Shown piece after piece: positions 968 to 33,231 of a stretch of DNA of 44,845 nucleotides. The first letter of the stretch is position 1. The number at the start of each line of letters is the position of its first letter. The stretch comes from a virus (lineage: Duplodnaviria > Heunggongvirae > Uroviricota > Caudoviricetes), in IMG/VR virus record IMGVR_UViG_3300045988_181891; one strand, written 5' to 3'. The translations under genes and the position numbers were made by a program. The notes beneath the pieces are model-generated. The model made no database searches. It had not been told where the DNA came from and saw only the letters and a list, made by a program, of their open reading frames with translations.

Positions 968-1173
968 TTGATTTTTGATATGTCCGATCTGTCCCGCTGG
1001 GATAGGTCGGATTTTGTTTTCTGTCTCTTTCTGTTTTTTAGATAGACAACCTTTTATTAGCTATTTGAGGTGATATTTATCATTTATCACTACATTTTTC
1101 TTGTTAAGTGTTAAAACATTGTTAATTAGATAACTTTTTGCTAGAAATATTTGGCGGTTATCGAAAAAAGTTG

Positions 1174-1181
1174 TACCTTTG
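1174..1181 (+). promoter_or_regulatory. -7 promoter box TAccTTTG for the tRNA gene
   Basis: gtacctttgcac about 30 nt upstream of the tRNA 5' end. Confidence 0.45.
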
Positions 1182-1212
1182 CACTCGCAATTCAGAAATG
1201 AGTTGATTATAT

Positions 1213-1288
1213 CGCGGCGTGGAGCAGTTGGTAGCTCGCCAGGCTCATAACCTGGAGGTCGCATGTTCGAGTCTTGCCGCCGCAACCA
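1213..1288 (+). tRNA. tRNA-Met: tRNA-Met (anticodon CAT), initiator-type
   Basis: 76-nt cloverleaf folded by hand: acceptor CGCGGCG/CGCCGCA with C1-A72 mismatch, U8, D-loop AGTTGGTA, anticodon loop CTCATAA, T-loop TTCGAGT, encoded CCA; near-identical in layout to E. coli tRNA-fMet. Confidence 0.85.
1270..1286 (+). repeat. attL core, 17-bp direct repeat AGTCTTGCCGCCGCAAC within the tRNA 3' end
   Basis: Identical 17-mer at 44538..44554; imperfect similarity continues for about 55 bp downstream of both copies (atcgggta..aacattct..atccgatt). Confidence 0.8.
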
Positions 1289-1404: not shown

Positions 1405-2568
1405 ATGACTGCAAAAGAAATTGATTTTTTGAGCTCGCGTGAAATAGTAGGTTTCACGCTGCCTGTGTTGCATACCAAGGGCGGTTACTGGTATGTTGAC
1501 TTTACTGCCTTTGACCCTGTTTCGGGTCGGATGAAGCGCAAGAAATATATGCTTAATAGGTACAAGACTGACCACAAGAAGCGTATGATGGGTACCTTGC
1601 TTATCCACAATATCACGGCAAAATTGACCGCTGGATGGAATCCTTGGGTGAATGCCGACAAGTCGAGACAATTCACCGAAATACCAATTATCTTTAGTCG
1701 TTATCGTGATTATATTAAGTCGATGACCGACAAAAAGTCGATGAAGGAAAAGACCTCTATCGACTACCTCAGCCGCCTCAAGACTCTGGAGTCTTTCATC
1801 ACTGAGTGCAAGAGTGTCAAATATGCCTATCAGATTGACCGTGCCTTCGCCATCGACTTCTTAGACCACCTGATGTATGACCGTGATGTGAGTGCTACCA
1901 CAAGAAACAACTATCGCTCTTGGCTTGTCTCCTTCGGCACTTGGCTTATGGATAGAAAATATATCAGCGAGAACCCTGCCATCGACATCAGAAACATCGC
2001 TCAGAAGGAGAAGTTCAGAGACCCTTTGACCGAGGGCGCGCTTAAGAAGCTGAAGACTTATCTCTATGATAACAACAGACATTTTCTCTTGGCTTGCCTC
2101 TTTGAATATTATACCTTTATCCGACCGAATGAGTTGACGCAGATAAGAATCAAAGATGTGTCGATTGCTGACCAGACGGTCTTTATCAGTTCTGCCATCA
2201 GCAAGAACCGTAAGGACGGACTTGTGGCATTGAACGATGAAATCTTGAAGCTCATGATAGAGCAGAAGATATTTGAGCATCCGGGACATTGTTTTATCTT
2301 TGGCAAGGGGTTGAAGCCTGGTGAGGAGCGAGCACCTTATAACCAACTGAGAGTAGAGTGGGGCAAGATGCGAGATGCTATTGGGTTTCCGAAGGAGTAT
2401 CAGTTTTATAGCCTGAAGGACACTGGCATCAGGGATTTGGCGAACGCACAGGGTATCGTGGTCGCCAAGGATCAGGCACGCCACTCTGATATATCTGTGA
2501 CGAATCGATATATCAAGAACCAGATGAAAGTGAACGAGGAGACCAAGCACTTCAAAGGTGGGCTTTAG
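1405..2568 (+). CDS. int: Tyrosine recombinase (phage integrase), Bacteroidota-type with N-terminal arm-binding domain
   Basis: ATG at 1405; C-terminal catalytic region HxxR...Y (ARHSDISVTNRYI); position directly beside the tRNA attachment site. Confidence 0.9.
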   Translation: MTAKEIDFLSSREIVGFTLPVLHTKGGYWYVDFTAFDPVSGRMKRKKYMLNRYKTDHKKRMMGTLLIHNITAKLTAGWNPWVNADKSRQFTEIPIIFSRYRDYIKSMTDKKSMKEKTSIDYLSRLKTLESFITECKSVKYAYQIDRAFAIDFLDHLMYDRDVSATTRNNYRSWLVSFGTWLMDRKYISENPAIDIRNIAQKEKFRDPLTEGALKKLKTYLYDNNRHFLLACLFEYYTFIRPNELTQIRIKDVSIADQTVFISSAISKNRKDGLVALNDEILKLMIEQKIFEHPGHCFIFGKGLKPGEERAPYNQLRVEWGKMRDAIGFPKEYQFYSLKDTGIRDLANAQGIVVAKDQARHSDISVTNRYIKNQMKVNEETKHFKGGL

Positions 2569-11400: not shown

Positions 11401-11427
11401 GGTGAATCTTGTTTTTGTTTTACAGTG

Positions 11428-11435
11428 CAAAGATA
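11428..11435 (-). promoter_or_regulatory. -7 promoter box TAtcTTTG (minus strand) for the lysis cassette
   Basis: Plus strand reads caaagata; about 25 nt upstream of the holin ATG. Confidence 0.45.
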
Positions 11436-11449
11436 AGAAGGGTAGGGTG

Positions 11450-11487
11450 ATAATAAAAATACGAGACCGCCCTAACGATCTCGTATT
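11450..11487 (-). terminator. Rho-independent terminator (minus strand)
   Basis: 9-bp stem AATACGAGA / TCTCGTATT with 12-nt loop, followed on the minus strand by TTTTTATTAT. Confidence 0.5.
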
Positions 11488-11500
11488 ATATGTTTAACTG

Positions 11501-11908: not shown

Positions 11909-11914
11909 AATTGA

Positions 11915-13558
11915 TCACGTGAATTTATAGAACTTCTTTTTGAATTTATTGTGAAGCTCTGCGACCACGGTGGAGAAGGGTAGCTCATCACGACAGAAGT
12001 CGTTGAGGGCTTGGTCTATCAAGATCTTGGAGCCTGTATAGAGGTAGTGCTCCAGAGGTTGCCATACCTCGGTGCCGTCTGGCTCCAGGTGGTCGATGAT
12101 GCGATAGCGTAGGGAGAGGCGCTTCTTGGGCACCTCTTTGGTGACCATGTGGGTGGAGCCGTCCGGGGCGGTCTCCTCTTGCTGGATGGTCTCCTTCTCT
12201 ATCACCGAGTCATCGACCTTGTAGTCTATCACTTGAACGAGGAACTTGTTCTCGTCCTGACCCTCACGGCAGATGATGTCCTCGATGGACTGCTGCTGTG
12301 ATTTCTCCATACCGTCAAAAGGCACGCGCGCACGGCGAGCCTTGACGAGTTTACCGAATCTTTCCATACCGATTTTCTTATATAAGTTTTTAGAGTTTGC
12401 GTGGATGCCCAGACCTAGGCGAGAGGCTGCCTTGAGCTGTATCTGGCGGTCTGTGAAGCCCGCCTTGCGTAAGTTGGCGATCTGTCTGCAGAGGTCGTGC
12501 TTGAACCGCTTGCGCAACAGGGCGTGGTCGGCGTAGATGATCTGACCGCATAAGTCGATGCCATCGCAGGTGCGGTGGATACCCCAAGACTTATTGATGG
12601 ATAGGTGCCAGTCACGGGCGAGGTGCATCACGGCAAGCTCTGCCATCAGCCTGAGGAACACCTTATCCTCGTGGAGGATGTAGATGTTGTCCATGAAGCG
12701 GTAATAATGGCGAAGACCTTGGCGGCAGAAGCGCTCGAACCTATCGTTGAGCGACTTCACTCCCCCGCATAGCAGTTGAGCTTGCTGCTGAGTGCGACAG
12801 GTAACGAGCATGTCGCTCACGTAGCGAGCCTGCCAGTAACGGAACTTGTCGGTGTCTTGGAGAATGTCGAAGCATCGGAGTGCCAGGTAATCGAAGCGGG
12901 CGAGGAAGAGCTGACCCAAGAGTTGGGCGAGCTTGACGCCGAGCACGATGCCTGGATTGAAGCTATCGACCACCTCGTCGATGAAGGCGAGGAGCTTGCG
13001 GTCTTTGATCTTGCGGCGATATTCACTTTTGAGAAGAGCGTGGTCTATGCTCTGAAAATAATGGTGAATATCCATGGGCAAGCAGTAGAAGGTATCTTGC
13101 TGTGGCGAGTTGAAGATGTCTCGCTTGACAAGATTATAGAAATAATGGGTGCCCTTGCCCTTGGAACCAGCCGGACTGTGGCTGTAGAGTGTCTTGCGAA
13201 GGTTATCCTCTACAGGTTGCAGGGCAGCGTGCTGGATGACGTGGTCGATAACGGGCAGCTTGTTGACTTGGCGATGTTTTGGATAGTCGATATCTTTGGC
13301 GACATAGGCTGAGGTATGCCAAGTTTGTTGGGTGTAAGCATCGAGCATGCGTCCGATGTTATGGTCTAGGTTTGCCTCGAATTTTTGGACCGCACGGCGA
13401 GACATCTTTTGTCGGGCGTAGTCATAGAATGCCCGACGAAAGTTGTCTAGTGTCTCGACCTGTAGCGATATGTTGCCAAACCTTTTCATAAGCGGTGTAA
13501 TGTCTGTGTTGAACGGTGTATAAACTGTGTATAGTCTGAATCGTCTGCTTTTGTACAC
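11915..13558 (-). CDS. DGR reverse transcriptase-like protein with non-canonical motif C
   Basis: RT motifs recognised by eye: HVIQHAALQPV, SPAGSKGKGTHY, LPMDIHHYFQSIDH, GVKLAQLLGQLFL; sits just downstream of the template repeat; ORF-track start 13558 is GTG, first in-frame ATG is at 13489. Confidence 0.8.
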   Translation of the reverse strand: MYKSRRFRLYTVYTPFNTDITPLMKRFGNISLQVETLDNFRRAFYDYARQKMSRRAVQKFEANLDHNIGRMLDAYTQQTWHTSAYVAKDIDYPKHRQVNKLPVIDHVIQHAALQPVEDNLRKTLYSHSPAGSKGKGTHYFYNLVKRDIFNSPQQDTFYCLPMDIHHYFQSIDHALLKSEYRRKIKDRKLLAFIDEVVDSFNPGIVLGVKLAQLLGQLFLARFDYLALRCFDILQDTDKFRYWQARYVSDMLVTCRTQQQAQLLCGGVKSLNDRFERFCRQGLRHYYRFMDNIYILHEDKVFLRLMAELAVMHLARDWHLSINKSWGIHRTCDGIDLCGQIIYADHALLRKRFKHDLCRQIANLRKAGFTDRQIQLKAASRLGLGIHANSKNLYKKIGMERFGKLVKARRARVPFDGMEKSQQQSIEDIICREGQDENKFLVQVIDYKVDDSVIEKETIQQEETAPDGSTHMVTKEVPKKRLSLRYRIIDHLEPDGTEVWQPLEHYLYTGSKILIDQALNDFCRDELPFSTVVAELHNKFKKKFYKFT

Positions 13559-13697
13559 TTGATAACCTTCGACCGGATGACCGTGTTGTCATCATCTACC
13601 AGCTGTCTTATTAATGTGTATGTATCGCCATGGGGCGAGGATTGACCCTGTAATCTCGAAGTGGGAGCAAACGACCCACGAAGAGATATGTCTGTAA

Positions 13698-13819
13698 GTT
13701 GAGGGCGGCGCCGTAGTTCACATTGGCATTCGAGACAGCATTGTTCACGTTGAGCGTTGAAAGACCGCATTGACCACCATTGTTAGCGTTAGCACCACGA
13801 AGGCAGACACGAAAACCGG
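13698..13819 (-). repeat. DGR template repeat (TR), non-coding
   Basis: 122 bp matching 14109..14230 with 10 mismatches, all at TR adenines (plus-strand T); the ORF 13611..13832 is a translation of the TR, not a gene. Confidence 0.9.
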
Positions 13820-13853
13820 CACCTAGGGTCACACCCTGGTATCATAACCGCCG

Positions 13854-13861
13854 CAAAGGTA
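13854..13861 (-). promoter_or_regulatory. -7 promoter box TAccTTTG (minus strand) directly upstream of the TR
   Basis: Plus strand reads caaaggta, about 35 nt upstream of the TR. Confidence 0.45.
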
Positions 13862-14057
13862 ATAAAAATAATCGGTATGGAAGCATGTCAAAGAGCTTTT
13901 TTGATGTTTTTATTGATATTTTTTTTGTCGCCGACCGCCACAGGCGGTAACTTAAGGCGAGCTACGCTCGCTGGGTGCTTCGGCTTCGCCGAGGGTGCTC
14001 AGGTCTCTTTTGCACACCCAGTAAACCGATGCACACCCAGCAAACTGATGTAGTCTC

Positions 14058-15530
14058 TTAGGCCGCCTCGTAATACACGGGTTCAACGGACCACTCGGAT
14101 GCTGCTTCGCAGAGGGCGGCGCCGTAGTTCACATCGGCAATCGAGACAGCACTGCTCACGTCGAGCGTTGAAAGACCGCATCGACCACCAAGGTTAGCGT
14201 TAGCACCACGAAGGCAGACACGAAAACCGGATGTAGCACCAGACGTATTCCAGAAATAGCTAGTCCAGTAGGTTGACTCGGATGCGCCCGTAGCGGTCGG
14301 GAAGTTCTCTAGATGCTCCATCGAGAGCGTCTTGATATAGCCTTCGCCCTTGGTCGGCGAGGTGCTGTAAGCCACCATGCCATCGGTGGAACCTATCGTC
14401 CACGTGCCGTAGATGGACGGTGCCACGAGATGGGTCACGGAAGTGTCCTCGTTGCAACGCACCTGCTCGTCATCCATGTGTCGCCACAATAAGCCGAAGC
14501 CATTTTTGTAGCCGAAGAAGGATGGTATCTTGGCGGTATAGACCACGGTGCCATCGTCTTTTTTGACCTCGTAGCTCGCCTCGCCGCAAGCGTCGCCAAG
14601 CTCGATGCCAGCCGACATCGGCACGACAGGGCGATAGCCGTTGTAACCACCCCAATCAGGCATCTGTGTCACGCCAGCGCCGAGACCACCCTGGTAGAGA
14701 CCGTTGGCATCTTTTTGGCTGTTGACGGCATCCTGGTCGTAGTGGGTGCCGAAGATGACCCCGAAGAGCACGGAGATGGCAGAGGTGTGGCGCATGGTGG
14801 TGCAGAGCCAGCCTGTGCCGTTTTTGCGGGCAGCAGCACGCCAGTATTCGGTAGTCTGGTTGGTGGCAGCCTTGCCCAGCATGGTGCGGTTGGTGTTATC
14901 TAACGTGGAGTCGTTGTTGCCGCCTCGGTAGTTTGTGCCCTCGTTGATGTAGCTCACCAGCTTGCCTGTGCTGCGCTCTAGCGTGGCGAAGCCAGCGGCG
15001 GAGATGCTGCCCACAGGTATCTTGTAATTGTACTCGCCTGGTATCGGCGTAGGGCTGACCATCTCGTAATGGAGTCTGCCCACGGTCTTGATGACCATGT
15101 ACCACTCCTTGCCCCAGCCCCACTGGTAGTGCCCCTCTGAGCCATCGAGCTTGGCTGTCTCGCCGGTGGCATACTTGTGGTGGTCTTTGGAGTCGAGCTT
15201 GCGACGGGAGTGGTCATTCTTGACCAGATAACAGCCCAGACCCAGCTCCGTTGGTAGGGTCTGCAGTAACTCTAGCGAGCCCACATAAGTGGCGGCTTTA
15301 GGGGTTGCATTGTCGAGGTTCCACACTCGACCACACCAAGGATGCTGTCCCATTTGGACGGCGCTTTTGAGCGACATCTGCTCAGACCTGCCGGATTTTT
15401 TGTCGAAGACCTCGACAATCTTGTCAGTGGCGCTCATGTCTGACTGTGGGAGGTCGTCAACCTGTTGACCTCCATCGAAAGCGGCTATGATAGCCTTGAG
15501 CTTACTCTCTTCTTCTGATGTTAATGCCAT
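14058..15530 (-). CDS. DGR target protein, putative receptor-binding structural protein with C-terminal variable region
   Basis: 490 aa from ATG at 15530 (ORF-track start 15578 is TTG); VR occupies the C-terminus; GFRVCLRG segment resembles the C-type-lectin/FGE-like fold of known DGR targets. Confidence 0.8.
   Translation of the reverse strand: MALTSEEESKLKAIIAAFDGGQQVDDLPQSDMSATDKIVEVFDKKSGRSEQMSLKSAVQMGQHPWCGRVWNLDNATPKAATYVGSLELLQTLPTELGLGCYLVKNDHSRRKLDSKDHHKYATGETAKLDGSEGHYQWGWGKEWYMVIKTVGRLHYEMVSPTPIPGEYNYKIPVGSISAAGFATLERSTGKLVSYINEGTNYRGGNNDSTLDNTNRTMLGKAATNQTTEYWRAAARKNGTGWLCTTMRHTSAISVLFGVIFGTHYDQDAVNSQKDANGLYQGGLGAGVTQMPDWGGYNGYRPVVPMSAGIELGDACGEASYEVKKDDGTVVYTAKIPSFFGYKNGFGLLWRHMDDEQVRCNEDTSVTHLVAPSIYGTWTIGSTDGMVAYSTSPTKGEGYIKTLSMEHLENFPTATGASESTYWTSYFWNTSGATSGFRVCLRGANANLGGRCGLSTLDVSSAVSIADVNYGAALCEAASEWSVEPVYYEAA
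14109..14230 (-). repeat. DGR variable repeat (VR) inside the 3' end of the target gene
   Basis: 122-bp copy of the TR; encodes ...GFRVCLRGANANLGGRCGLSTLDVSSAVSIADVNYGAAL..., ending 17 codons before the stop at 14058. Confidence 0.9.
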
Positions 15531-15552
15531 AATAAAAATTATATTTAATCGA

Positions 15553-16317
15553 TTAAACAATGCGTAATTTATCACCAACTTTTCTAAGCTTGCCCGATGC
15601 CGACAGGCGAAGGCGAGGCTGGCGCACGGTGATGCTGACCTCTTGCCAGAGCGGTGTGTTGGCGGTGGGGATGACCCAGAACTTGGTGGTGCCCTCGCCC
15701 TTGATGATGAGGTTGCCGCTTGGGTCTGCCACGAGCGAGTCGCCCTCGGCTCGCTGGAAGAGCACGCTCTGAGGGAGGTAGCTCGGCAGGATCTGCACGG
15801 CGATGCGCAGAGCCACCTTGTTGCGTAGGCTTATCTCGGGGAGATAGGTCAGGTTCATGCGAGCTGGCGCGATGAAGCCTGTGGTTATCTGAGCGGCGAG
15901 ACCATCCATCTGCGCTATCTTGGCATCGGCTCGCTTGGATGCCGCGTCAGCCTCTGCAGCCTTGGTCTCTGCCAAGGCTGCCTGTGATGCTGCAGCCTCG
16001 CCCTGCTCGCCAGCCGCCTTGGCTGCGCTCTGGGCGAGGTTAGCCGCCTTGTTGGCATCGTCGGCCGCACCCTGCGCTCTGACGGTCGGTGTCTTGTCGA
16101 GCCACAAGCGCCACTTGGCGTTGGTATCTGAAGGAGTCGTCGTGTTGCCATCCTCTAGGGAGGCGAAGACTCCTGACGATGTGTGAACGATGTCGCCCTC
16201 GTCGTAGCCCTTGACGGTCTGGCCATCCTCATCTTGATAGGAGTAGCCCGACTGCCAGGTGCCCTGGTCGGTGAAGGCGACATTGCCCACGATAATGATG
16301 TTTGTGTTATCTGCCAT
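15553..16317 (-). CDS. Hypothetical structural protein with Ala-rich coiled region
   Basis: ATG at 16317; 254 aa. Confidence 0.55.
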   Translation of the reverse strand: MADNTNIIIVGNVAFTDQGTWQSGYSYQDEDGQTVKGYDEGDIVHTSSGVFASLEDGNTTTPSDTNAKWRLWLDKTPTVRAQGAADDANKAANLAQSAAKAAGEQGEAAASQAALAETKAAEADAASKRADAKIAQMDGLAAQITTGFIAPARMNLTYLPEISLRNKVALRIAVQILPSYLPQSVLFQRAEGDSLVADPSGNLIIKGEGTTKFWVIPTANTPLWQEVSITVRQPRLRLSASGKLRKVGDKLRIV

Positions 16318-16323
16318 AATGAT

Positions 16324-17166
16324 TTATACTTTAATGACTAACTTGTTTCTGCGCTTGACAACGTGTTCAGCGACATGACTGCCGTAGTCGATCATGAGGA
16401 GTTTGTTGCGCCGTTGACGGAACGCCGGATACATGGCACCGCCTCGGGCGATGACTCCTGTATCGACATAGGTGTGCTTGGAGAGATCCCACTGCCACCA
16501 GTTGCCGTTGTCGCCCATCTTGGGTGGATGGTCGTTGAGCTCCTGGGCTAGGTTGGTCTGCTTCTCGCTCTCGGTGAGGGCTGTGAGCGTATCATCGATG
16601 CGCTTGTTCTCGGCGGTGACACGACCCGCCTCGGCGGCTATGCGAGCATTTTCGGCTGTCGCTCGCTTGATCTCTGAATCCATGCGAGCTTGCTCTTGGG
16701 ACTGTCGGGTCTGCTCGGCAGCTTGTCTCTTGGCCTCGTTGCTCTCAATGGCAGCCTTGGAAGAGAGCGTGGCTTCGGTCGCCTGTTTGGCAGCCTCGGT
16801 CTGCGACTTGCTGGCACTGACCGCATCCTCTACCTTTTTGCGTTCGGCGGTGAAGTCAGTTGTCGCCTTGTTGACGCTAGCCGCCGCATCGTTGGCTTTG
16901 CCAGCTGCGGTGTTGGCCTCCTCTGTCGCCTGTTTCGCCTCCTCGATGCGGATATCCACATCTTTAGTCAAGAGTGACAGCGGTGCGATGACTTGCTTTT
17001 GCACACCGTCTTTGCTGTAGAGGGCGGGCATCGTACTGATGCCATCGAGCGAGGTGGCGAGCTCGCAAGAGAAGATGTTCTTGCTGTGCCGCTGTAGATA
17101 TTCGTTGAACTTAGGTAAGAGCCGGGCGCATAGCGCCTCGAACTCTGTGTCATTCTCTATGCCCAT
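16324..17166 (-). CDS. Hypothetical structural protein with central coiled coil
   Basis: ATG at 17166; 280 aa. Confidence 0.55.
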   Translation of the reverse strand: MGIENDTEFEALCARLLPKFNEYLQRHSKNIFSCELATSLDGISTMPALYSKDGVQKQVIAPLSLLTKDVDIRIEEAKQATEEANTAAGKANDAAASVNKATTDFTAERKKVEDAVSASKSQTEAAKQATEATLSSKAAIESNEAKRQAAEQTRQSQEQARMDSEIKRATAENARIAAEAGRVTAENKRIDDTLTALTESEKQTNLAQELNDHPPKMGDNGNWWQWDLSKHTYVDTGVIARGGAMYPAFRQRRNKLLMIDYGSHVAEHVVKRRNKLVIKV

Positions 17167-17169
17167 AGG

Positions 17170-17466
17170 CTATGATTTTAAGATGTCCTGTTTCCACTCG
17201 GCAATCTTGGCGAAGACAGCCCCTGCCTCTTCATCGCTCAGCACGGCAGTGTTGATGCGACATGAGAGGTTGGTATCCATAAAGCTGATGTATCCAGCAC
17301 CGCTCTCGGAGGCTGGTGCATCATCTTTGGACTCTGTACGTTTATAGACCTCACCGGAAAAAGAGACCTTGTCATCTCGCTTTGTCTTGGTGAACTTGAC
17401 GAAAACGCCTGTAACAACCTCAATCTCCTGGATGTCGGTTGTCGTAACTGTTGACTCTACCTTCAT
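17170..17466 (-). CDS. Hypothetical small protein
   Basis: ATG at 17466; tightly packed with neighbours. Confidence 0.5.
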   Translation of the reverse strand: MKVESTVTTTDIQEIEVVTGVFVKFTKTKRDDKVSFSGEVYKRTESKDDAPASESGAGYISFMDTNLSCRINTAVLSDEEAGAVFAKIAEWKQDILKS

Positions 17467-17468
17467 AA

Positions 17469-17771
17469 TTAATCTTGCTCTATTAGTTTAACAATCTGAC
17501 AATATACCCCTGGCACCAAGGAAGCCTTGGCGACCTCTTTGATCATGGTTAAGTCTTCGGTCGTACACTCGACCTCACTTGGTTTAGTGTGCATCTGCAC
17601 ACTCAGGTTGTAGGCTCTCTTAAGAGACTCATCATCAGCCTTGACGCTGTTATTGCTTCCGTTGAACAGATGAAGTCCGAGCACCTCATTCATCATCTGA
17701 GGCTGTCCGTTGCTGTCTGTCATCACCCCGCCCCTGTAGTTACGGATGGCGACCTTAAAATTTCTTTTCAT
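17469..17771 (-). CDS. Hypothetical small protein
   Basis: ATG at 17771. Confidence 0.5.
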   Translation of the reverse strand: MKRNFKVAIRNYRGGVMTDSNGQPQMMNEVLGLHLFNGSNNSVKADDESLKRAYNLSVQMHTKPSEVECTTEDLTMIKEVAKASLVPGVYCQIVKLIEQD

Positions 17772-17789
17772 ATCTGTCTAAGTTTAAAA

Positions 17790-20700
17790 TTAATATGCGT
17801 GGTTCAGCTTGCGCGCTGTGTATTTGGTCGTGTAGTCACTCACCTTGTTGCCCATGGTTGAGTTATAGACCAGCAGGAACGTCGCACTGTCGCCCTGTCC
17901 CATCTCTATGTAATCTTTGTTGCCGCAGTTCTCATCGAGAATCAAAGGTAACTCCTCTTTGTTCCATGCGTAGGAATCGCTTTTGTCTTTGATCTTGTTG
18001 CGCCCATAAATGAAGAAGTTTGTCGTGCCTGGCTCAGCGACCACCGTAAATGTCACGGCGAAGTTGGTAGATGAGCCACAGCCTAATGCGCTGCGCACCT
18101 CAGACAGTGTTGGCAGCGTTATGCCGCTTGACGAGACGTAGCTGTAGATGAGCCAGACGTTATTCTCAGAAATCTTGGCATAGCCATTATAGATGGTGTT
18201 TTTTGTGCTAAGCGCATATCTGCTATACTTATATCCACCTATCCATCCATTGAGTACGCCATTGCCAGCACCTGTGAAAGCAAAATTATAGGCACCGTTT
18301 TTAGCCGAGAGTATGGCTGCGATATTGTAACCAAGCCCCCACCAGTCGCTGCTGTCCTCATTTTCGAATCGAGCCACCGCACGCTGTCCTGATGCCGCTG
18401 GTAGTACGTTGCCACCGATGCCCGCAAAGCATTTATGGGTATCGTTGCGAAATATGATGTATGCATCATTGGTAAATGGGTCGTTTGTCAGACCCGTGCC
18501 CTGGATAGTGAATCCAGCGATCTTGCCCGCCAATGCCTCCATGGAGCCATCTTTGTTGATTTTGAAATTGCTGTTGGCCGTGACCACACCGTTAAGGTTG
18601 ATTTGGTCTGCCGTGATGGTGGCAGAGGAGATGCCGTTGGCAATCATTGTCTTGATGGTAGCCTCGGATAGAATCTTGCCATCGACACCCTCGATTTTTG
18701 TAGTCAGCGCATTGTAGTCTGCCGTCACAAGCAAGCCACCTTTGTTTTTGAGCGTGCCATCGGCATTGAATCGCTCGCTCATCAGGGCGTTGTAGTCAGC
18801 GGTGGTGATAAGATAGCTCGTATCTTTGAGCTTGCCATTGGCATCGAAACGAGCAACTGCCGAAGACCACGAATCGGCGTTTTGACTGACCAACGATATA
18901 GTCGGACCATAATCGTTGCGTATGTCTGAGCCTACGCTGTCGGCGTGTCTCCTGGCTTCGGCAACGGAACTGTTGAGGGCATTGTAGTTGTCAGACATAG
19001 TCCCTTGCAAAGTGTTTTTGGCTGCATTCAGCTCGTCTTTTGTCGCAGCCTTGCCCACCGTGGTATTGATGCCATTGACCGTTATCTTTAACTCAGCGAG
19101 TGCCGCCTTGGTGCCGTTGGCAGTATTGGTGACGCTCTCGACACGTGCAGTGATGCTGTCGATGTCGGTGTAGATGCCAGAAATTTTCTCGTTTGTGCTA
19201 TCCTGCCAGGTGTTGATGAGGTCGATGCGACCTGCCTCTATCTCTATTCTTGACGAGAGTGTTGTGTTGAGTTCGCCGTATCTCTTATCGACATATAGGC
19301 GTATTGCCTCTTTCTCAGCGTCCAGCTCGATGCCGAGCTGAGTTGTGGTACCATTGACCTTGTCGATGTTTTGTCCCAGCAGCTTGATGTTTTTGGCCGT
19401 CTGAAGTATTTGTGTCGAGACGGTCTTGCTCAGGTTGTCGAGCGGCTCGTCGGTGATGGTGAGCAGCGCGACGTAGATGTCTCCTGTATATCGGAGCACG
19501 AAGTCGCCGGTGCCATTCCACTTGCCATTTAGCTCTACCGTCTGCCACTCTGCCGAGTATGGCACGCTGACGCTCTGGGCTGACAGGTCGTTGGTCTTGC
19601 CTTCGACAGCCTTGCAACCCTCGAAGCCAAAGGTGAGGGTGCCAGCAGTCTTGGCGTAGATGCGAGCACTTATATATAAGGTGTCTTGCACCTCGGTGTA
19701 GTCATCGCCAGTGGTGTTCATGCCATCCTCGCCTTTTTCTGCCGATGGCTGGGTATATTCCTTGTGGGTACCGGGTTTGCGGATGAGATCATTGGCTTGT
19801 TTGATGCCGCTGTCCTGTATGTGCAGCATGTTGCGACCCTCGTTGTTGTCGATGCTCACTCGGTGGTTGCCACTCACGGTGGCGGCACCATTGACCATGA
19901 CAGGTAAGCCATTGGCATCGACCCAGAACTGGGACTCGTCTGTATCGTCGATGGTCCAGCCATCAATGAGCTGCTCATCGTTATAGCCTATCGCCGTCAG
20001 AAACTGACCGTTATGGAGGTAGTTGTTCTCCTCTGTCGCCTCGTAGGAGGTCTGTGCGAAGCGGGTGGCGAACTGGTTCTGCAGCATCTGTATTTTGGTG
20101 TCGATGCTCTCACCTGTGCGGCGGAGCACGAAGTCGCCCGTGGCGTAGAGGTTCTGCAGGAACTCACCGAAGCCTGATAGTGCACCGAAGAGTGGATGGG
20201 TGATGCCCCGTAAGTTGCCGAGGCGACCTTTGAGCGCATTGTCTGGGTCTGTCTTGAGACCATAGATGATGTCCATGTAGGGCGTATCGCTGCCCACAGT
20301 CATCATCTGTATGATGCCCTTGCGGTCGGGGTCGGTGAGGTTGTCGACCCTAACAAAAGTGTCTCGCTTGGTGATGAGCTGCTCTGCGGTGGCACCCTCC
20401 ATCGATGAGGTGAAGTTCTTGAACTTGACCCATGCTAGCATATCCTCGCCACTGCCCTCGCTGCCCACCTCTGTCACGATAAGCTCGTATCGCTTGGTGA
20501 CATAGTGATTGTTTTCGGTGGAGGGCATGCCATTGTACTGCTGCACCATCACGTAGTCATCCTTGCGGAATGGGTTGTACATCCTGCCCTCGTGGGTGTC
20601 GAGATAGACCCTGCCTGTCTCTGGATCGTAGTGGTCAACCTCTAGCATCGCCGTGAAGATGCGGTTGTCATTCTCGCCCAAGAGTTGGGAGATAATCATC

Positions 20701-26802: not shown

Positions 26803-27114
26803 TTACTCTTCGGGCTGTGCGCAGTTGATTATCCAGACGAGTCTGCCACCCTCGACAGACTTCATCTTGAAGCCGTGCTCGACCATGTACTCGGTGATGA
26901 CGGAGATGGGAGCGACGACCATGCCGCTGATGGCCTCTTGTATATCTTTGGAGGATAGAAAGTCAACGCATTGGCTGTATGGGTCATCGCCCGGTGTGTC
27001 GCCATCGAAGTAAGCGTCGAGCGCCATGCGCACATAGTCGATCTTGCTCTCTTGCTCTGACTGTTGCTGCTCGTCGCTGTTGGCACTGAAGCCCATCACA
27101 CGCATACGTTTCAT
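26803..27114 (-). CDS. Hypothetical protein
   Basis: ATG at 27114; 103 aa. Confidence 0.5.
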   Translation of the reverse strand: MKRMRVMGFSANSDEQQQSEQESKIDYVRMALDAYFDGDTPGDDPYSQCVDFLSSKDIQEAISGMVVAPISVITEYMVEHGFKMKSVEGGRLVWIINCAQPEE

Positions 27115-27380
27115 GCCTCACCTCCTTTCGCCTCCAGTGCTATGTTGATGGTCTTGAAGAGCTTGCTCATGTGGTCGAAGTTGTTGAGCATGAGGAGCAC
27201 TTTGTCGGCACCGCCGAGGTCTTCGACACAGTTGGTCACCACCTCGTCTGAGATAAGCACCTTTTTGACTTGCTCAAGGTACTCGATGAAGTAGCTGAGC
27301 TGGTTGACATCCATCATTTCTACGAGCGCATTCCAGACCTCTGCTGTCATGTGCATATTTGTTGCGTTGTTTGTGTTCAT
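27111..27380 (-). CDS. Hypothetical protein
   Basis: ATG at 27380; 89 aa. Confidence 0.5.
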   Translation of the reverse strand: MNTNNATNMHMTAEVWNALVEMMDVNQLSYFIEYLEQVKKVLISDEVVTNCVEDLGGADKVLLMLNNFDHMSKLFKTINIALEAKGGEA

Positions 27381-27742
27381 GCTACGACTCCTCCCATCAG
27401 ATAACCACCAAAGAAAACCACTGCCATGAAGGCTGCGAAGCCTAGTGTGGCCTTGACCACCTCGCCGTAGGTCACGCTCTCGTCGCAGAGTGCGGTGAAG
27501 GTCTCGCTCTCGGTCTTGGCGAGCTTCTTGATTTCACACTTGAGGGTATTGATACCCTCCTCTACGCTGATGCCTGCAGGTCTCACCTGCGCATCACTAA
27601 TTAAAATTGAATTCTGCATAATTGCCATCTTATAACCATTATAGACCGATCTTGATGTATAAATACAATGGTGGCGGTCACATTCACCGTTGGTTATAAG
27701 ATGGTAGCTTTCCCAGCGAAGGTCAAGTATCTTACGGATCAT
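27377..27742 (-). CDS. Hypothetical protein with C-terminal transmembrane helix; start uncertain (27742 or 27628)
   Basis: Both candidate starts are ATG; a 10-bp inverted repeat sits at the internal start. Confidence 0.45.
   Translation of the reverse strand: MIRKILDLRWESYHLITNGECDRHHCIYTSRSVYNGYKMAIMQNSILISDAQVRPAGISVEEGINTLKCEIKKLAKTESETFTALCDESVTYGEVVKATLGFAAFMAVVFFGGYLMGGVVA
27629..27700. repeat. 10-bp perfect inverted repeat CTTATAACCA / TGGTTATAAG separated by 52 bp
   Basis: 27629..27638 and 27691..27700; a third copy CTTATAACC at 27868..27876 abuts the promoter box at 27882. Confidence 0.45.
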
Positions 27743-27881
27743 GCAACCGCCATATTGAAAAGACCTTTTTCCCGCTGCCGGGAAAATGATACTTTATAGG
27801 CATAAAAAAAGCCCACGGCGTGAAGCCTAGGCGAAACAGTCGCCATCGCTGAGTAGATTACTACTATCTTATAACCGATGG

Positions 27882-27889
27882 CAAAAGTA
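27882..27889 (-). promoter_or_regulatory. -7 promoter box TActTTTG (minus strand)
   Basis: Plus strand reads caaaagta. Confidence 0.35.
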
Positions 27890-28021
27890 CGAAGAATAAT
27901 TGGAACCGCCAAAAAAAAAGCGAGAAATTTTGAAATAAATGACTTTTTTATGTTTTAGAGCATAAAACAAGGGGGTGAGGAACGAAAAAGCCCCGGATGC
28001 TCACGCACCCGAGGCTGACAG

Positions 28022-28414
28022 TTATTTTTGGAAATAAACTTTTAAAGGGATTGAATTCTCCACATTGCCAATTTTGAAAGAGAACTGATAGTTGCCCTCT
28101 GCAGGGAACTGGAGGTCGGAGAACTCAAAGATGAAGTTGCTGAAGAGAAACTCATCTGAAGGGTGTGGCTCAATCTTGGAATTGATGGGCTGGCCAAGAA
28201 TCATCTTGCCAGTGCTCATCTCTGTAACCTCTGCCGAGAACTCTTGCTGAAGTTTGCTTTCCTCGCTGTTCATCTTAACTCTCGCTACCATGAAGAGGTT
28301 GTTCTTAGGCAGCGGTGCTTTTCTTACCACATAGTGGTCAAAAGTGCCCACGATGGTAAGTTTGCCGTCATTATCTTGTGCAAAGTCACACAATGCAAGA
28401 ATATCTATGTTCAT
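28022..28414 (-). CDS. Hypothetical protein, accessory cassette gene 3
   Basis: ATG at 28414; 130 aa; locally AT-rich. Confidence 0.5.
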   Translation of the reverse strand: MNIDILALCDFAQDNDGKLTIVGTFDHYVVRKAPLPKNNLFMVARVKMNSEESKLQQEFSAEVTEMSTGKMILGQPINSKIEPHPSDEFLFSNFIFEFSDLQFPAEGNYQFSFKIGNVENSIPLKVYFQK

Positions 28415-28851
28415 TTTATATGTCCTTTAATGTTAGACTCGATAGCCGAGTGTTTGAAAAGTTTTTTATAATTGTCGAATGAATATTTGAGTTTGCTCAC
28501 CGTGCGCTTGTTTGTGCTCACTAGGTTGGCTCCATGTCTGCCAGAGATGCCTTCCTTGGTATTGAACTTCAGAGAATTTCTTTTGGAGTCAACCCAAAGC
28601 CTGATGGCATCGCCTTGTATCTTGTCACCCACATTGCCATGGACGTTGAGATCTTCTCGTATTTTCTTGTCCTCTTCGTTGAGCTCAAGAGCTTCGGTGA
28701 TTTCTACGGAACTATTTCGGTCTAGTTCGTATAATGTCATCTTTTTGCCCGTGATAGGTTCCTCTTTGAGTCCCTTCCACTCAGCCCTTCTGGCAATGAC
28801 ATCAGCTTTTTTGCCCTCTATGATTTCACCTTCTTTGATATATATAGCCAT
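28411..28851 (-). CDS. Hypothetical protein, accessory cassette gene 2
   Basis: ATG at 28851; 146 aa; 4-nt start/stop overlap with the downstream gene. Confidence 0.5.
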   Translation of the reverse strand: MAIYIKEGEIIEGKKADVIARRAEWKGLKEEPITGKKMTLYELDRNSSVEITEALELNEEDKKIREDLNVHGNVGDKIQGDAIRLWVDSKRNSLKFNTKEGISGRHGANLVSTNKRTVSKLKYSFDNYKKLFKHSAIESNIKGHIK

Positions 28852-29279
28852 TATTGGATACTTTTTTGCATTGATTTTTCACTGAAAGAGAATACCTCAG
28901 CCATATCATCAGGCGAGGTGATGCTCATGAGCGATGGGCTGACCTCAAGAGCCACCTCAATGTCTTCAATGGAAGCATCTTTATCTTGTTTGATGATGTA
29001 CTTATCCTCATGCTCTTCAATCTCTTTATCAAACTCTTCTTCGGTAATATTGCCGTCAAGCATTTCGCAATATAGTTTGAAGTAGTTGCGCTCACGTGTG
29101 CGGTTGTTAACGGCACGAGTCATCAACTCCTTGAGTCTGTCGGCAGTACTAATGTTGAAAAAGTTAGCCTTATTGGTAACACCAGCGAATGCAACCTTGC
29201 CAGTACCTTTGTCTTGTATAGCCACAACAGGGCTGCCATCAGTTTGGTATGTTGTATATATAGTCGTTGTATTGCTCAT
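28851..29279 (-). CDS. Hypothetical protein, accessory cassette gene 1
   Basis: ATG at 29279, 31 nt downstream of a promoter box; 142 aa. Confidence 0.5.
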   Translation of the reverse strand: MSNTTTIYTTYQTDGSPVVAIQDKGTGKVAFAGVTNKANFFNISTADRLKELMTRAVNNRTRERNYFKLYCEMLDGNITEEEFDKEIEEHEDKYIIKQDKDASIEDIEVALEVSPSLMSITSPDDMAEVFSFSEKSMQKSIQ

Positions 29280-29309
29280 AATTCACATCCTGTTTATATT
29301 AACACGGTG

Positions 29310-29317
29310 CAAAGATA
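29310..29317 (-). promoter_or_regulatory. -7 promoter box TAtcTTTG (minus strand) for the three-gene accessory cassette
   Basis: Plus strand reads caaagata. Confidence 0.45.
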
Positions 29318-29439
29318 CGGTTATTTTTTGTAAATCGCAAATTTAATGATAAATTTAACAACAAAAATTGCAATAAAGATTGGAAAATGGTATATAAAGA
29401 ATGCTCGACCGCTTTTTGGCTCTTGCCAGACGCTTTCGC

Positions 29440-29488
29440 CGCAGGCGAAAATTTTTGGAAAATGAGGGGGAAGGTTTTAGCCTTCCCC
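29440..29488 (-). terminator. Terminator-like hairpin downstream of the RadC gene
   Basis: 8-bp stem GGGGAAGG / CCTTCCCC with 6-nt loop (29467..29488), followed on the minus strand by a T-rich tract; a second small hairpin lies at about 29436..29451. Confidence 0.35.
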
Positions 29489-29507
29489 TTACCTTATTAT
29501 ATATATA

Positions 29508-30191
29508 TTATAGCTTTCCTTTGTCGTGGTAGCTGTAGAAGCCATCCTCAGCCAAGATGATATGGTCCATCAAGAAAAGTCTCATCACCTCGCACGCCTT
29601 GGCTATCTTCTGCGTGAGCATATCGTCCGCCTTGCTCGGCTGCGTGCTGTTCGATGGGTGGTTGTGTGCCACGGCGATGATGGTTGCATTGTTGAGCACG
29701 GCTTCTTTCATTATCAGTCGAACGTCCACCGCTGTCTCGGTGATGCCTCCCTCGCTGAGCTTGGTGCACTTTATCAGCCTAAAGTTTTGGTTCATCAGCA
29801 CTACCCAAAAGCCCTCTGTCTCATTGCAGCCTATCATTGGGCGAAGATAGTTGTAGAGTGCCAGGCTGCTGCCTAGGTCGGTGTTTCTCGCTACCTTTTC
29901 CATTTGGTAGCGTCTGCCTAGCTCGATGGCTGCCTGTAGGGCTATCGCCTTGCAGTCTCCAATTCCTGGTACCACTTCCAGGTCTTCTATTCTCGCCTTG
30001 CCGATGTTGCGAAGCGAGTTGCCCATGATGTTATAAATCTGTCGTGCCTGCTCTTGGCTGTCCTTGGTACCTGCCCCTCTGTTGATTACCAAAGAAATCA
30101 AGTCAACGTTGGTAAGGGTGTCGAAACCTTGGTTATAGGCTCTGTACTGCGGTCTCTCCTCCATACAAAGATTGTTATAATTTTGTCTCAT
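29508..30191 (-). CDS. radC: RadC-like JAB/MPN domain protein
   Basis: Signature AHNHPSNSTQPSKADDMLTQ (HNHPSG..PS..D motif) and N-terminal helix-hairpin-helix segment VPGIGDCKAIALQAAIELGRR. Confidence 0.75.
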   Translation of the reverse strand: MRQNYNNLCMEERPQYRAYNQGFDTLTNVDLISLVINRGAGTKDSQEQARQIYNIMGNSLRNIGKARIEDLEVVPGIGDCKAIALQAAIELGRRYQMEKVARNTDLGSSLALYNYLRPMIGCNETEGFWVVLMNQNFRLIKCTKLSEGGITETAVDVRLIMKEAVLNNATIIAVAHNHPSNSTQPSKADDMLTQKIAKACEVMRLFLMDHIILAEDGFYSYHDKGKL

Positions 30192-30206
30192 ATCTTTTGT
30201 TATTTG

Positions 30207-30731
30207 TTAGTTATACATTCTCTTTGTTCTCGCTAGGAACATCGCTCCCATCACTTGTGCGCCACATTCGGCTAGCTCGTTGGCGAACTCTCGGGCGGTC
30301 GCTCCGCTCGTCACCACGTCGTCGAAGATGATGACTTTCTTTCCGCTGAAGTACTCTCTATCGAGTGCCACTCTGTAGTCGAAGCTCTCACACACTCTGT
30401 CTGTGCTGAAGTGCTTGGCTGTGCGCTCTCCATAGATGGAAATGTGCTCGTTTCCGTTCTGTACCTTTGCGCCTTGGCTCACCTTTTGGGCGAAGCGAGA
30501 AAAGCGCTTGGTGTACTTCTTTGAGTTGGCTGCTGGAGCGCAAACCATCACGAAGTCGCTGGCTTTGTCGCCATAGGTGTTGACGAAAGAGCTGACCACC
30601 ATATCGGCAGCTGCGTCTGTCGCCCACTGCTTTCCATCCTTGAAGGCAAAGATGAAGTTTCTCACTTGCTCTGCTTGTGCTGAGCGGTCGAAACGCTTGG
30701 AGCTGTACTCGTAATAATTGAAAGTTTTCAT
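30207..30731 (-). CDS. Phosphoribosyltransferase-domain protein (ComF-like PRTase)
   Basis: PRPP-binding motif KKVIIFDDVVTSGATAREFANEL near the C-terminus; ATG at 30731. Confidence 0.6.
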   Translation of the reverse strand: MKTFNYYEYSSKRFDRSAQAEQVRNFIFAFKDGKQWATDAAADMVVSSFVNTYGDKASDFVMVCAPAANSKKYTKRFSRFAQKVSQGAKVQNGNEHISIYGERTAKHFSTDRVCESFDYRVALDREYFSGKKVIIFDDVVTSGATAREFANELAECGAQVMGAMFLARTKRMYN

Positions 30732-30779
30732 ACGCTTAAAATTTTTATTCTAGCCAGAGGGAGGAAGGAGCTTTTTTAT

Positions 30780-31629
30780 TTGAACTCGTCTTTGCCTGCC
30801 CGTCTGAGAGTTTTTTTTATTCTGTCCGTCGGTCGTTTTTGTCGCTTTTTACGGTGCGATGCAGACGAGCGGAGAAGAGGTATGAAAGCCAAGGAATTTT
30901 GCAAAAAGTTTATGGAAAACCGTCATCTCTGATTGCGGAAGGCTGCCGAAAAGTTTTTGGAAAATAGATTTATCGGTACTTGGTGCATGCCGTCCGCCGT
31001 ACCTTTGCACCCGAAAAAGAGATAATGACCGATGGATAACCGATAAAGGGAAAAGCTCTCGGACAGGAAAAGCGGGCAAAGAAAAGGCTCTGCCTTACCT
31101 TGGTGGTTAAGCCTTAGCGACGTTTGAGCGCCATCACGGTCACTACCGCTTGAAAATTCGCAAATTTTAACCATAGCGTATGAAATGAAAGATGGAAAAT
31201 TTGCGTCATCAAAAACACCATGTTTTTCAGACTTTAGGAGGAAAAACATACCTTGGAGCGATGAAATCGCAGCATTTGGCATGCTTCGACCCCGAGGTTG
31301 AAGATGCCGAATGTGTCGTTTTGCGACAGGTTTTCCACACCCACGGATTGGAAAACCCCGATTTTATCGTGGTTTTAGGGATTCAAAGGGAAAATAATTC
31401 CCCTTTGTCGGCGATAGCACCCCCCACCGCCCTACGCCCGAGCGCGCCTTCCGCCCCCTTGGAAAAGACGGAATATGTAAAAGACCGTTAACGTTTTTGT
31501 AGGAATGTAAAAAGCCAAAAGGCACGAAAAAAGGGAACACGCTTCGCAGCGCACTCCCCTTATCGGCGGTCAAGCAAGAATGCCAGCCACCTAACTTATA
31601 TAAGAATCGTACTATCTAAAGAAATCAAA
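30780..31629. other. 850-bp ORF-poor region between the terminase and accessory genes; candidate non-coding RNA or packaging-related cis element
   Basis: No convincing ORF on either strand; plus-strand promoter box at 31000; C-rich tract around 31420..31465; a 7-bp stem hairpin around 31390..31415. Confidence 0.3.
31000..31007 (+). promoter_or_regulatory. Plus-strand -7 promoter box TAccTTTG inside an otherwise minus-strand region
   Basis: The 12-mer GTACCTTTGCAC is identical to the one in the host tRNA promoter (1173..1184). Confidence 0.35.
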
Positions 31630-33231
31630 CTATAGCATGGAACCCGTGGCGATGTAGCCATCAGCCTGAGGGTATTTCTCCATGCCAATCATGAGCGTGT
31701 CGTAGGCATCGGAGCCATCGGTGCGAGCCTCCAACTTATCCTCCTCGGTCTCAGCCAGCTTCTCGCCTCGCTTATCCTTCTTGCCGTTGTAGACCCCGGC
31801 CAGGCGGATGGAGATGAGCAGGTCTTCGTTGTTCTCGCTGTTGATCATCGAGCGATGCTCAGCCTTGCCGAGGAACATGCGGTTGAGCAGAAGCATCTTT
31901 TCGAGATGTCCCATCGGGTTGCCCAGATAGACCTCGTTGACATACCAGCCATGGTCGGTGAGGTAGTCGGTGATGAAGGTATGGAAGTCATCGTTCATCA
32001 GGGCGTAGTTGTTGCCCACGAAGGTGGAGTCGTAGTAGAAGTTGACCTCTTTGCACCGATGGTACTCATAGTACTGCATGAACTTGTCGAGCAGGGCTGG
32101 CAGCTTCTCCTCATACTTCACGAAGATGCTCTTGAGGCAGCGTGCCTCGCCCCGCAGGTTGTCTTGTCCGACGGCTATCCAGTTGATGAGGGCGTTGGCA
32201 TCGAAGGCGATGCAGAGCGGACGGTCGGGGTCAACGTCGGCATCCATTCTGGAATCTACATGCTTGAGCTTGTCGATGTCGTAGCCCAAGCCATCGAGGT
32301 AGGCGAGGTTGGGCGCCGTGTATAGGTTGGCATCCCTGAGGTTGGAGTAGAAGCCATCGAGCGAGATGGAAGGTCGCTTGCACATGATGGAGGTCTGGAA
32401 GGTGAGGGCAGGGAGGTCTCGCTTCATCTGCTTGATGAACTCCATGCCGAGCACCTCGATGTTATAGACCGATGAGTACTCTTTATAGAAGAGTGCCTTG
32501 GAGCGCAGTTGCGCCAGGAGCTGACCAATCTCTCGGAGTCGGCGCTGGGCATAGCCTGAGACATGGCCCGAGGTCTTGATGCGGTTGCGTATGTCATACT
32601 CCTCTACCACGAGCGAGGCGATGGCGTCGATGAGCAGCTGGTCGCAGTCTTTCTTGTAGTTGAGGAACCAGGAGCCCTTCTTGGTCACGGGCATATCAGA
32701 GGTGATGAGCATGCCATGGTGGTAGTAGTGCTGGCCGAAGAGGTTGACGTTGCCTCGATTGGCAGGGAAGGTCTCGTCTTTGAGCTGTTCGAAGTTGATG
32801 AACTTCGCCTCGTCGATGTCGAGGTAGTCGAGCGAGAGGGAGTTGGAGGTACCCTTGCGGTCTTGCGAGATGATGGTACCGATGGAGCCGTTATAGAAAG
32901 AGATGGTGTTCTCCCAGTTGCTGGGCGGTATGACCGGGTCGGGCCATCCCAGTTTTTTGGGAGGCTTGACCCCGATGAGATAATGCTTGCCCCGGTGGAA
33001 GCCCCATCGCTCCCAGTGCTGAAGCATCGACGGTATGGTGTTGGTGAGGCATCGCTTGGTGTTGGCGGATACGAAGCCGCCGTTGCTGCCAGGCATGCGC
33101 TGCATGTTGCGCAGGTTGAAGGTGGCGTGGAGAATGCTCTTGCCGATGCCTCGACCGCCCACGACCACGTTGTCGCGGGCGGAGATGAGGTTGACCTCCA
33201 TCTGGGCTGGGTTGAGATATTGATCTATCAT
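31630..33231 (-). CDS. Terminase large subunit
   Basis: Walker A VVGGRGIGKS, Walker B-like LDYLDIDEA, C-terminal acidic nuclease-type region; start/stop overlap with the upstream small gene. Confidence 0.8.
   Translation of the reverse strand: MIDQYLNPAQMEVNLISARDNVVVGGRGIGKSILHATFNLRNMQRMPGSNGGFVSANTKRCLTNTIPSMLQHWERWGFHRGKHYLIGVKPPKKLGWPDPVIPPSNWENTISFYNGSIGTIISQDRKGTSNSLSLDYLDIDEAKFINFEQLKDETFPANRGNVNLFGQHYYHHGMLITSDMPVTKKGSWFLNYKKDCDQLLIDAIASLVVEEYDIRNRIKTSGHVSGYAQRRLREIGQLLAQLRSKALFYKEYSSVYNIEVLGMEFIKQMKRDLPALTFQTSIMCKRPSISLDGFYSNLRDANLYTAPNLAYLDGLGYDIDKLKHVDSRMDADVDPDRPLCIAFDANALINWIAVGQDNLRGEARCLKSIFVKYEEKLPALLDKFMQYYEYHRCKEVNFYYDSTFVGNNYALMNDDFHTFITDYLTDHGWYVNEVYLGNPMGHLEKMLLLNRMFLGKAEHRSMINSENNEDLLISIRLAGVYNGKKDKRGEKLAETEEDKLEARTDGSDAYDTLMIGMEKYPQADGYIATGSML

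Follow-up and report, generated by a model that had tools for sequence, protein, structure and literature searches.

The IMG/VR virus record IMGVR_UViG_3300045988_181891 (Caudoviricetes), a stretch of 44,845 nucleotides (nt) that is referred to here at its full length as the window, contains a cassette of three small overlapping genes (g1, g2, and g3; Table 1) that very probably constitutes a mobile, non-structural moron. Some near-identical phages have the cassette and others do not, phage lineages have recently exchanged it as a single block, and it recurs in unrelated genomic contexts, all of which points to a mobile moron and not to a set of assembly genes. A preliminary description of the region had already taken it for a self-contained accessory cassette of the moron type, and its presence and absence, exchange as a unit, and unrelated contexts now support that reading. 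A function in biological conflict, in whichever direction, appears rather probable, and it is favored on balance that the cassette is a mobile accessory operon and that its three products cooperate in such conflict.

The distribution of the cassette was determined in 72 IMG/VR loci with relatives of TerL, the name given here to a 533-amino acid (aa) protein (31630..33231) with a weak match to the terminase large subunit, by scoring every gene from TerL to a conserved 353-aa gene. Among the close relatives (TerL at least 92% identical at the aa level, with enough flanking sequence), the trio is present in 29 of 54 loci and missing from the remaining 25, and a partial trio was seen in none of these TerL-relative loci, each of which has either all three genes or none. 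The trio is likewise missing from all 14 of the distant relatives with enough flank (TerL ∼52%). Because so many close relatives lack it, g1, g2, and g3 are not conserved assembly genes; the possibility that they are, and are present in all relatives, had been raised in the preliminary description and does not hold. In locus L019, the TerL of which is 99% identical, exactly the segment 27931..29304 of the window is missing, and in L024 and L043, which lack the segment 29383..31150 encoding the neighboring phosphoribosyltransferase (PRTase) and RadC, the TerL-side DNA is joined straight to the cassette at 29382. These borders delimit what is gained, lost, or exchanged as one piece, namely the promoter region, the leader, the three genes, and the terminator. 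The right border of this unit meets a backbone promoter segment that is present in 49 of the 72 relatives, and the promoter-bearing segment on its left travels mainly with the trio. The upstream PRTase and RadC pair varies independently of the trio, all four combinations having been seen.

Exchange is apparent from the levels of identity on either side of these borders. In ∼20 phages, the intergenic region 29280..29507 together with g1 and g2 is 98–100% identical at the nt level and TerL only 86–88% identical; the cassette with its promoter region is 99–100% identical in phages at this TerL distance. In the same ∼20 phages identity falls to ∼75% in the downstream gene s2 (27111..27380), the neighboring RadC and PRTase genes of eight of these phages reach only 79–82%, and in some a breakpoint falls inside g3 (92–93% identical).

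Six or more phage contexts whose flanks are unrelated contain the same ordered trio, which can follow TerL, directly precede ClpP and a putative capsid gene, adjoin tape-measure genes, or close an early region. Loci were scanned with the closer of the g1 alignments (A3), the broad alignment (A4) being too diverse. The trio is complete and in order in 124 of 134 fetched loci and in 38 of 41 metagenome loci, with junctions that are typically −1/−4 nt and gaps that never exceed 19 nt; the loci that deviate are truncated at contig ends, decayed (two copies), or from two phage lineages with g1 only. Outside the trio, g2 was never found. One of the early-region contexts (L009–L011) comprises RecT, DNA methylase, PAPS reductase, and Sequestin genes, with the trio at its end, and in another (L012–L014) the trio closes a long array of small early genes and has no promoter of its own. 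Metagenomic contigs with the cassette number in the hundreds, single homologue clusters of its proteins occurring on 163–325 contigs.

Some of these loci have peculiarities of their own. In L009–L011 (∼11390–20429, minus strand) the trio is convergent to a giant polyvalent protein of 5300–5460 aa, encoded on contigs of up to 211 kb, in which MuF_C, ART-PolyVal, ddrB-ParB, InPase, and PBECR domains can be detected. The two decayed cassettes (L287:5573-6312 and L325:1376-2010) have an intact g1, a g2 that is cut after ∼1/4–1/3 of its length, and a deleted g3. Solitary g1-family genes are located beside tape-measure genes in two lineages (L204:4958-5416; L209:4842-5414, also L210–L213), and in a relative of one of these lineages the complete trio occupies this position (L214:5082-6196); apparently g1 can be kept on its own. 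On a 62.8-kb metagenomic contig (L288:4992-7785) three small genes downstream of the trio are tandemly duplicated, with a 177-aa chimeric open reading frame (ORF) that includes a g3 fragment between the copies, and this duplication could be real or an assembly artefact.

All genes in the surrounding part of the window lie on the minus strand, and the three overlapping genes are present as first described, with one base shared at the junction of g1 and g2 (TAATG) and four at that of g2 and g3 (ATGA). Ratios of non-synonymous to synonymous substitution (dN/dS) of 0.04–0.07 were obtained for all three genes against homologues that are 75–80% identical (0.06 for g1; dS is near saturation at this distance), indicating that all three ORFs are genuine genes under strong purifying selection. 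The TAtcTTTG box that had been pointed out (29310..29317) forms the −7 part of a complete bipartite promoter consensus match, separated by a 20-nt spacer from a −33 TTTG element at 29341..29338. Nine such bipartite sites are found in the window against 0.44 expected from shuffled sequences, and none of 100 shuffles reached nine; the same promoter is located upstream of the trio in L001, L005, L009, L089, and L205. At the other end of the cassette, the predicted terminator that directly follows g3 has a folding free energy (dG) of −23.3 kcal/mol and a z-score (z) of −5.3, and a terminator-like hairpin in this position was also read by eye from the sequences of L001, L005, L009, L012, L203, and L205. 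The hairpin that had been reported upstream of the cassette (29440..29488) is present as two hairpins, 29488..29467 and 29450..29434, both directly 3′ of the RadC stop codon, and the gap of ∼280 bp that had been noted after the cassette measures 279 bp (27743..28021) and holds two features that had not been listed, the strong predicted terminator of the cassette and the next predicted promoter. From this arrangement we infer that the cassette is transcribed by the host RNA polymerase independently of the late operon, which would make expression in the lysogen and/or early in infection possible.

The AT-richness that was also part of the first description is present but modest. The cassette has a guanine-plus-cytosine (GC) content of 0.423, the window one of 0.498, and the flanking genes one of 0.50–0.56; values at or below that of the cassette occur in 7.9% of equal-sized segments, so that the difference within this window is not large; it recurs in other contexts, the GC content of the trio being 4–11 points under that of the flanks in all 12 other loci examined. 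No paralogues of g1, g2, or g3 were found elsewhere in the window, and no Rfam family scored above threshold in or around the cassette.

Table 1. Coordinates of the cassette, its predicted control elements and the features that bound it; positions are those of the window and are given from high to low for control elements read on the minus strand (pI, isoelectric point).
Feature	Coordinates	Strand	Description
g1	28851..29279	minus	ORF, 142 aa, pI 4.6
g2	28411..28851	minus	ORF, 146 aa, pI 9.4
g3	28022..28414	minus	ORF, 130 aa, pI 5.0, DUF6941 (PF22091)
Predicted bipartite Bacteroidetes sigma-A-type promoter	29341..29310	minus	TTTG-N20-TAtcTTTG consensus match
Operator-like imperfect palindrome	29304..29291	minus	TGTTAATATAAACA (gene strand); directly after the −7 box, at or near the predicted transcription start
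Related second site	29360..29347	minus	TGTTAAATTTATCA (gene strand); just upstream of the −33 element
Predicted intrinsic terminator of the cassette	28016..27989	minus	12-bp GC-rich stem and U-tract, directly after g3
Unit gained, lost, or exchanged	27931..29382	minus	Promoter region, leader, g1-g2-g3, terminator; from the borders in L019 and L024/L043
Predicted terminator of the upstream RadC/PRTase module	29488..29467	minus	8-bp stem, dG −15.3, z −2.05; boundary feature, outside the cassette
PRTase (30207..30731) and RadC (29508..30191)	within 29383..31150	minus	Separate two-gene module, independently gained or lost
Next predicted bipartite promoter	27913..27882	minus	Backbone; drives the downstream small-gene operon; right-hand boundary mark

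The products of the cassette are small (14.9–16.7 kDa), and the absence of a structural hallmark, as first described, is confirmed in that none of them matched a structural family in PHROGs or Pfam. The g1 family comprises 395 clusters at 50% identity, mostly of 130–175 aa, with a variable N-terminal part, a highly conserved core (AVNNRTRERNYF...ITEEEFDKEIE..ED.Y, of which AVNNRTRERNYF is almost invariant), and a conserved C-terminus (DDMAE.FSFS..S). A helix-turn-helix (HTH)-like pattern was read by eye at the C-terminus of g1; a search for HTH domains gave no family above threshold, with isolated weak matches to HTH-type Pfam models in single members of the g1 family. A long g1-family match fused to a glycerate-kinase fragment (P0262) was set aside as a probable gene-calling chimera. 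The second protein, g2, is mostly β and retains a set of residues that are invariant down to 29% identity (Y41, D44-R45-N46, H71, G75-D76, R91, E100-G101, and H106-G107); its predicted model gave no fold match in PDB or BFVD. The sequences of g1 and g2 had no match in Pfam, PHROGs, NCBIfam, or PADLOC, their family profiles had none among PDB sequences, and single scans of relatives, 52 diverse ones for g1 and 24 for g2, yielded no curated family.

In contrast to its partners, g3 has a curated counterpart, being a full-length member of DUF6941 (it scores 75.5 bits, the curated gathering threshold being 27; residues 5–126 aligned to positions 2–124 of the 125 in the profile). It had no phmmer match among PDB sequences, and its AlphaFold2 model (mean predicted confidence, pLDDT, 88) is a nine-strand immunoglobulin (Ig)-like β-sandwich, for which fold searches returned generic Ig-like matches only. 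The invariant residues of g3 are concentrated in two short motifs, DFAQDN.GKLTIVGTF and LQFP..G, which appear to be adjoining loops that form a predicted binding site and which are shared with chromosomal members of DUF6941. Inspection of 79 chromosomal DUF6941 neighborhoods revealed lineage-specific synteny only, beside apparent DnaK and decarboxylase genes (assigned by eye), and no partner conserved across phyla was present among the 79 genes; these neighborhoods therefore give no functional lead, and no mention of DUF6941 was found in the literature. When the three sequences were read by eye, no signal peptide or membrane segment was seen, which makes a surface-type lysogenic conversion function less likely. 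Searches of deposited phage genomes (INPHARED) with g1 and g3 by tblastn gave no match, and blastn with the whole region detected two unannotated gut phage records, neither of which covers the trio.

The palindrome that follows the −7 box of the cassette promoter is perfect (TGTTAATcATTAACA) in L001 and L005 and reads TGTTAATTAGCA in L009, and the related site upstream of the −33 element is also found in L089. Locus L019, which carries other cargo in place of the trio, shares the promoter only to position 29305 and diverges where the palindrome would begin; the palindrome accompanies the trio and is not seen where the same promoter serves other cargo. A role as RNA structure was rejected, the corresponding hairpin being too weak (dG −2.8, z −0.6), and a DNA operator is therefore the likelier reading; because the palindrome is lacking from the most distant trios, the operator counts as no more than a lead.

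The site that the cassette occupies, between TerL and the conserved 353-aa and putative portal genes, matches the pattern of a phage diversity or defense hotspot. Between TerL and the 353-aa gene, 85 clusters of ORFs were distinguished in loci L017–L088, many of which represent alternative cargo. The cargo of siblings that lack the trio includes HicA toxins, a SocA/Panacea antitoxin-type protein, DUF5053 and DUF2335 proteins, an RNase_T exonuclease, and the PRTase and RadC pair. Further cargo was labelled by eye, namely a HicB-like protein without a family match, a small protein beside SocA/Panacea that looks membrane-spanning, and an 857-aa protein that looks methyltransferase-like. Several of the hotspot clusters carry no annotation and could be further unknown systems. 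The PRTase of the window has weak PADLOC matches to the toxins ShosT (E 2e-9) and PsyrT (E 9e-9), and together with RadC (JAB) it may itself be a defense or toxin-antitoxin (TA)-like pair.

The specific explanation put forward for the cassette, which is plausible if somewhat short of an even chance, is an undescribed three-component phage conflict system, serving defense or abortive infection or else counter-defense, with g2 at its core and a recruited DUF6941 protein. Three small cytoplasmic proteins would work together, probably as a complex, in phage–host or phage–phage conflict. Basic g2 would be the effector, because, unlike g1 and g3, it was never found on its own and because it possesses an invariant His/Asp/Arg/Glu set; acidic g1 would be its partner or neutralizer and may also repress the operon via the palindrome, and the DUF6941 β-sandwich of g3 would provide a binding or sensor subunit. 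This particular division of roles is doubtful. As to direction, defense or a TA-like function is tentatively preferred, since siblings carry TA- and defense-like cargo at the same site, since the phage is temperate and the overlapping acidic and basic products g1 and g2 are encoded behind a palindrome, and since g2 was never found by itself and it is g1 that persists in decayed copies.

A number of observations weigh against this explanation. None of the three proteins matched a toxin, antitoxin, anti-CRISPR (Acr), anti-CRISPR-associated (Aca), or enzyme family, and a scan of all three against the defense-system models of PADLOC-DB 2.0 returned no family at E ≤ 0.1, so that the proposed function rests on context. 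Two phage lineages have g1-like genes alone, and outside phages DUF6941 genes stand singly on chromosomes (those of Chitinophagaceae, Ferruginibacter, Treponema, and others) with no g1 or g2 nearby, only the phage branch being coupled to both; g1 and g3 are thus not obligate partners of g2. The candidate operator is imperfect in the window and missing from the most distant trios, and no HTH domain was detected in g1. In two contexts the trio ends early-gene arrays beside anti-defense-like genes, a placement that counter-defense would fit equally well. Finally, the absolute GC content of the trio tracks that of each host phage, for which reason foreign origin was rejected as the sole cause of the low GC content, and the latter may reflect a Lys/Asn/Glu-rich protein composition as much as foreign origin.

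In a counter-defense operon the three proteins would be made early from the strong host-type promoter and would inhibit host immunity, for example by sequestering a signal or by blocking an effector, with g1 as an Aca-like autorepressor at the palindrome. Small soluble proteins without an enzyme signature, two of them acidic, would suit such a role, as would the invariant loops of g3, which at one end of the β-sandwich could belong to a ligand- or protein-binding sponge; an operator-like inverted repeat lies at the predicted transcription start and travels with the cassette, the promoter architecture resembles that of Aca-regulated operons, mobility among unrelated phages is high, and the trio closes the early regions of L009–L011 and L012–L014. 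On balance counter-defense is somewhat unlikely, yet nearly as likely as the preferred direction. Against it, the proteins bear no likeness to known anti-defense proteins and have no detected HTH, the alternative cargo at the hotspot is of defense and TA type and not of anti-defense type, DUF6941 is solitary and in a housekeeping context in free-living Bacteroidota, and the regulator would come first in the operon, whereas Aca genes are usually last.

A host-takeover or regulatory module without any role in immunity, in which g1 and g2 would bind nucleic acid or RNA polymerase and g3 would be an adaptor, is improbable. The invariant Arg/Asn-rich helix of g1 (NNRTRERNYF), the HTH-like pattern read at its C-terminus, the weak single-member matches to HTH-type models, the existence of g1-like genes alone in other phages, and the basic character of g2 would be in keeping with it; however, no regulator family was matched significantly, the trio is dispensable in half of the close relatives, and its position varies with no tie to a particular regulated module. 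Very improbable indeed is a non-essential virion accessory, with the Ig-like g3 decorating capsid or tail and g1 and g2 as assembly helpers. Packaging, head, or tape-measure genes do adjoin the trio in several contexts, but it is set apart from the late operon by a predicted host-type promoter and terminator of its own, it is missing from almost half of the close relatives (25 of 54), it is not confined to one morphogenetic module and can also lie in early regions, non-phage DNA contains DUF6941 homologues as single chromosomal genes, and neither a structural PHROG match nor more than a generic Ig-like fold similarity of g3 was found.

Phage morons are independent transcription units inserted between conserved genes, a definition that comes from lambdoid phages, HK97 and HK022 among them. 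Like these, the cassette has its own predicted promoter and terminator and a GC content below that of its neighbors, and it is present or absent between otherwise collinear relatives inside a late-gene region; four of the five defining features are found, namely promoter consensus, terminator, base composition, and presence or absence at the same site. Unlike typical morons, it consists of three coupled genes instead of one, and its GC offset is modest and scales with the host phage. Diversity or defense hotspots of the P2/P4 type are known in phages and satellites, and as in these a fixed site between core genes holds alternative cargo in siblings, although the trio itself matches no known defense or anti-defense family. 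Hyper-variability hotspots of phages and satellites are the subject of a survey (bioRxiv 10.1101/2024.10.15.618418).

Resemblances to type II and tripartite TA modules are found in the small, overlapping genes and the acidic first and basic second products, as well as in the location in a mobile-element hotspot beside bona fide TA pairs and in the decayed copy in L287, which keeps g1 and has lost g2 and g3; the promoter palindrome fits such modules less clearly, being perfect in two lineages, imperfect in the window, and missing from distant trios. Examples of such modules are omega-epsilon-zeta, TAC, and PaaR-PaaA-ParE; in contrast to TA proteins, those of the cassette have no toxin or antitoxin homology, and the conserved part of g1 is C-terminal and not an N-terminal DNA-binding domain. 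With Acr/Aca operons the cassette has in common small proteins, a strong predicted promoter with an inverted repeat at the start site, and a spread over unrelated phages, and it differs from them in having no HTH protein that scores above threshold, no Acr homology, and the candidate regulator in first position.

The DNA of the window belongs to a temperate tailed phage or prophage of Segatella (Prevotella) copri. A tyrosine integrase gene (1405..2568, plus strand) adjoins a tRNA-Met (CAT) gene (1213..1288), and this junction is probably the attachment site and prophage end; the window also encodes a Cro/C1 HTH protein, a ClpP-type prohead protease, and a 1448-aa tape-measure protein. An S. 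copri metagenome-assembled genome carries g1, g2, and g3, its g3 being 96% identical, and many homologues derive from human-gut assemblies labelled as uncultured Prevotella or Siphoviridae. The tRNA-Met gene has a bipartite promoter of its own (region 1150..1288, plus strand).

Two further features of the window were observed. After the cassette, the backbone segment 27740..27930 (minus strand) contains a promoter and then a structured leader of ∼140 nt (dG −44.6, z −2.85), which includes a hairpin followed by U7 upstream of the small ORF s1 (27377..27742); the segment is kept in relatives without the trio at 75–93% identity and could be an attenuator or a small RNA. At 13541..13642 (minus strand) an Rfam match to RT-17 RNA (59.9 bits, gathering threshold 40.4) is located directly upstream of a 547-aa ORF (11915..13558, minus strand), which matches solved reverse transcriptases (8ub7, E 2e-10; group-II-intron reverse transcriptase 6ar1, E 4e-4) and had no Pfam match at E < 0.01. 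A diversity-generating retroelement or another reverse transcriptase element is suspected here from sequence similarity.

A moron in a phage diversity hotspot is of a well-known kind. The gene set g1-g2-g3, however, is undescribed, since no match other than the DUF is available in PADLOC, PHROGs, NCBIfam, or Pfam, no homologue of g1 or g3 was found in INPHARED, and no literature on DUF6941 was found. Purifying selection on the three genes together with their exchange between phage lineages implies a selectable function. As the g1 and g2 families are without a curated model and g3 is a DUF, solving that function would annotate three families at once, and it could add a new defense or counter-defense system to those of Bacteroidota, which to our knowledge are under-represented in current defense catalogues. 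Segatella copri is a dominant human-gut bacterium that is hard to manipulate, and its phages are, as far as we know, almost uncharacterized. The TerL-proximal hotspot is a place to look for more cargo of this kind and, if the explanation proposed here is true, a conflict system would have spread by cassette exchange through many S. copri phages, drawing on a domain, DUF6941, that bacteria also use alone.

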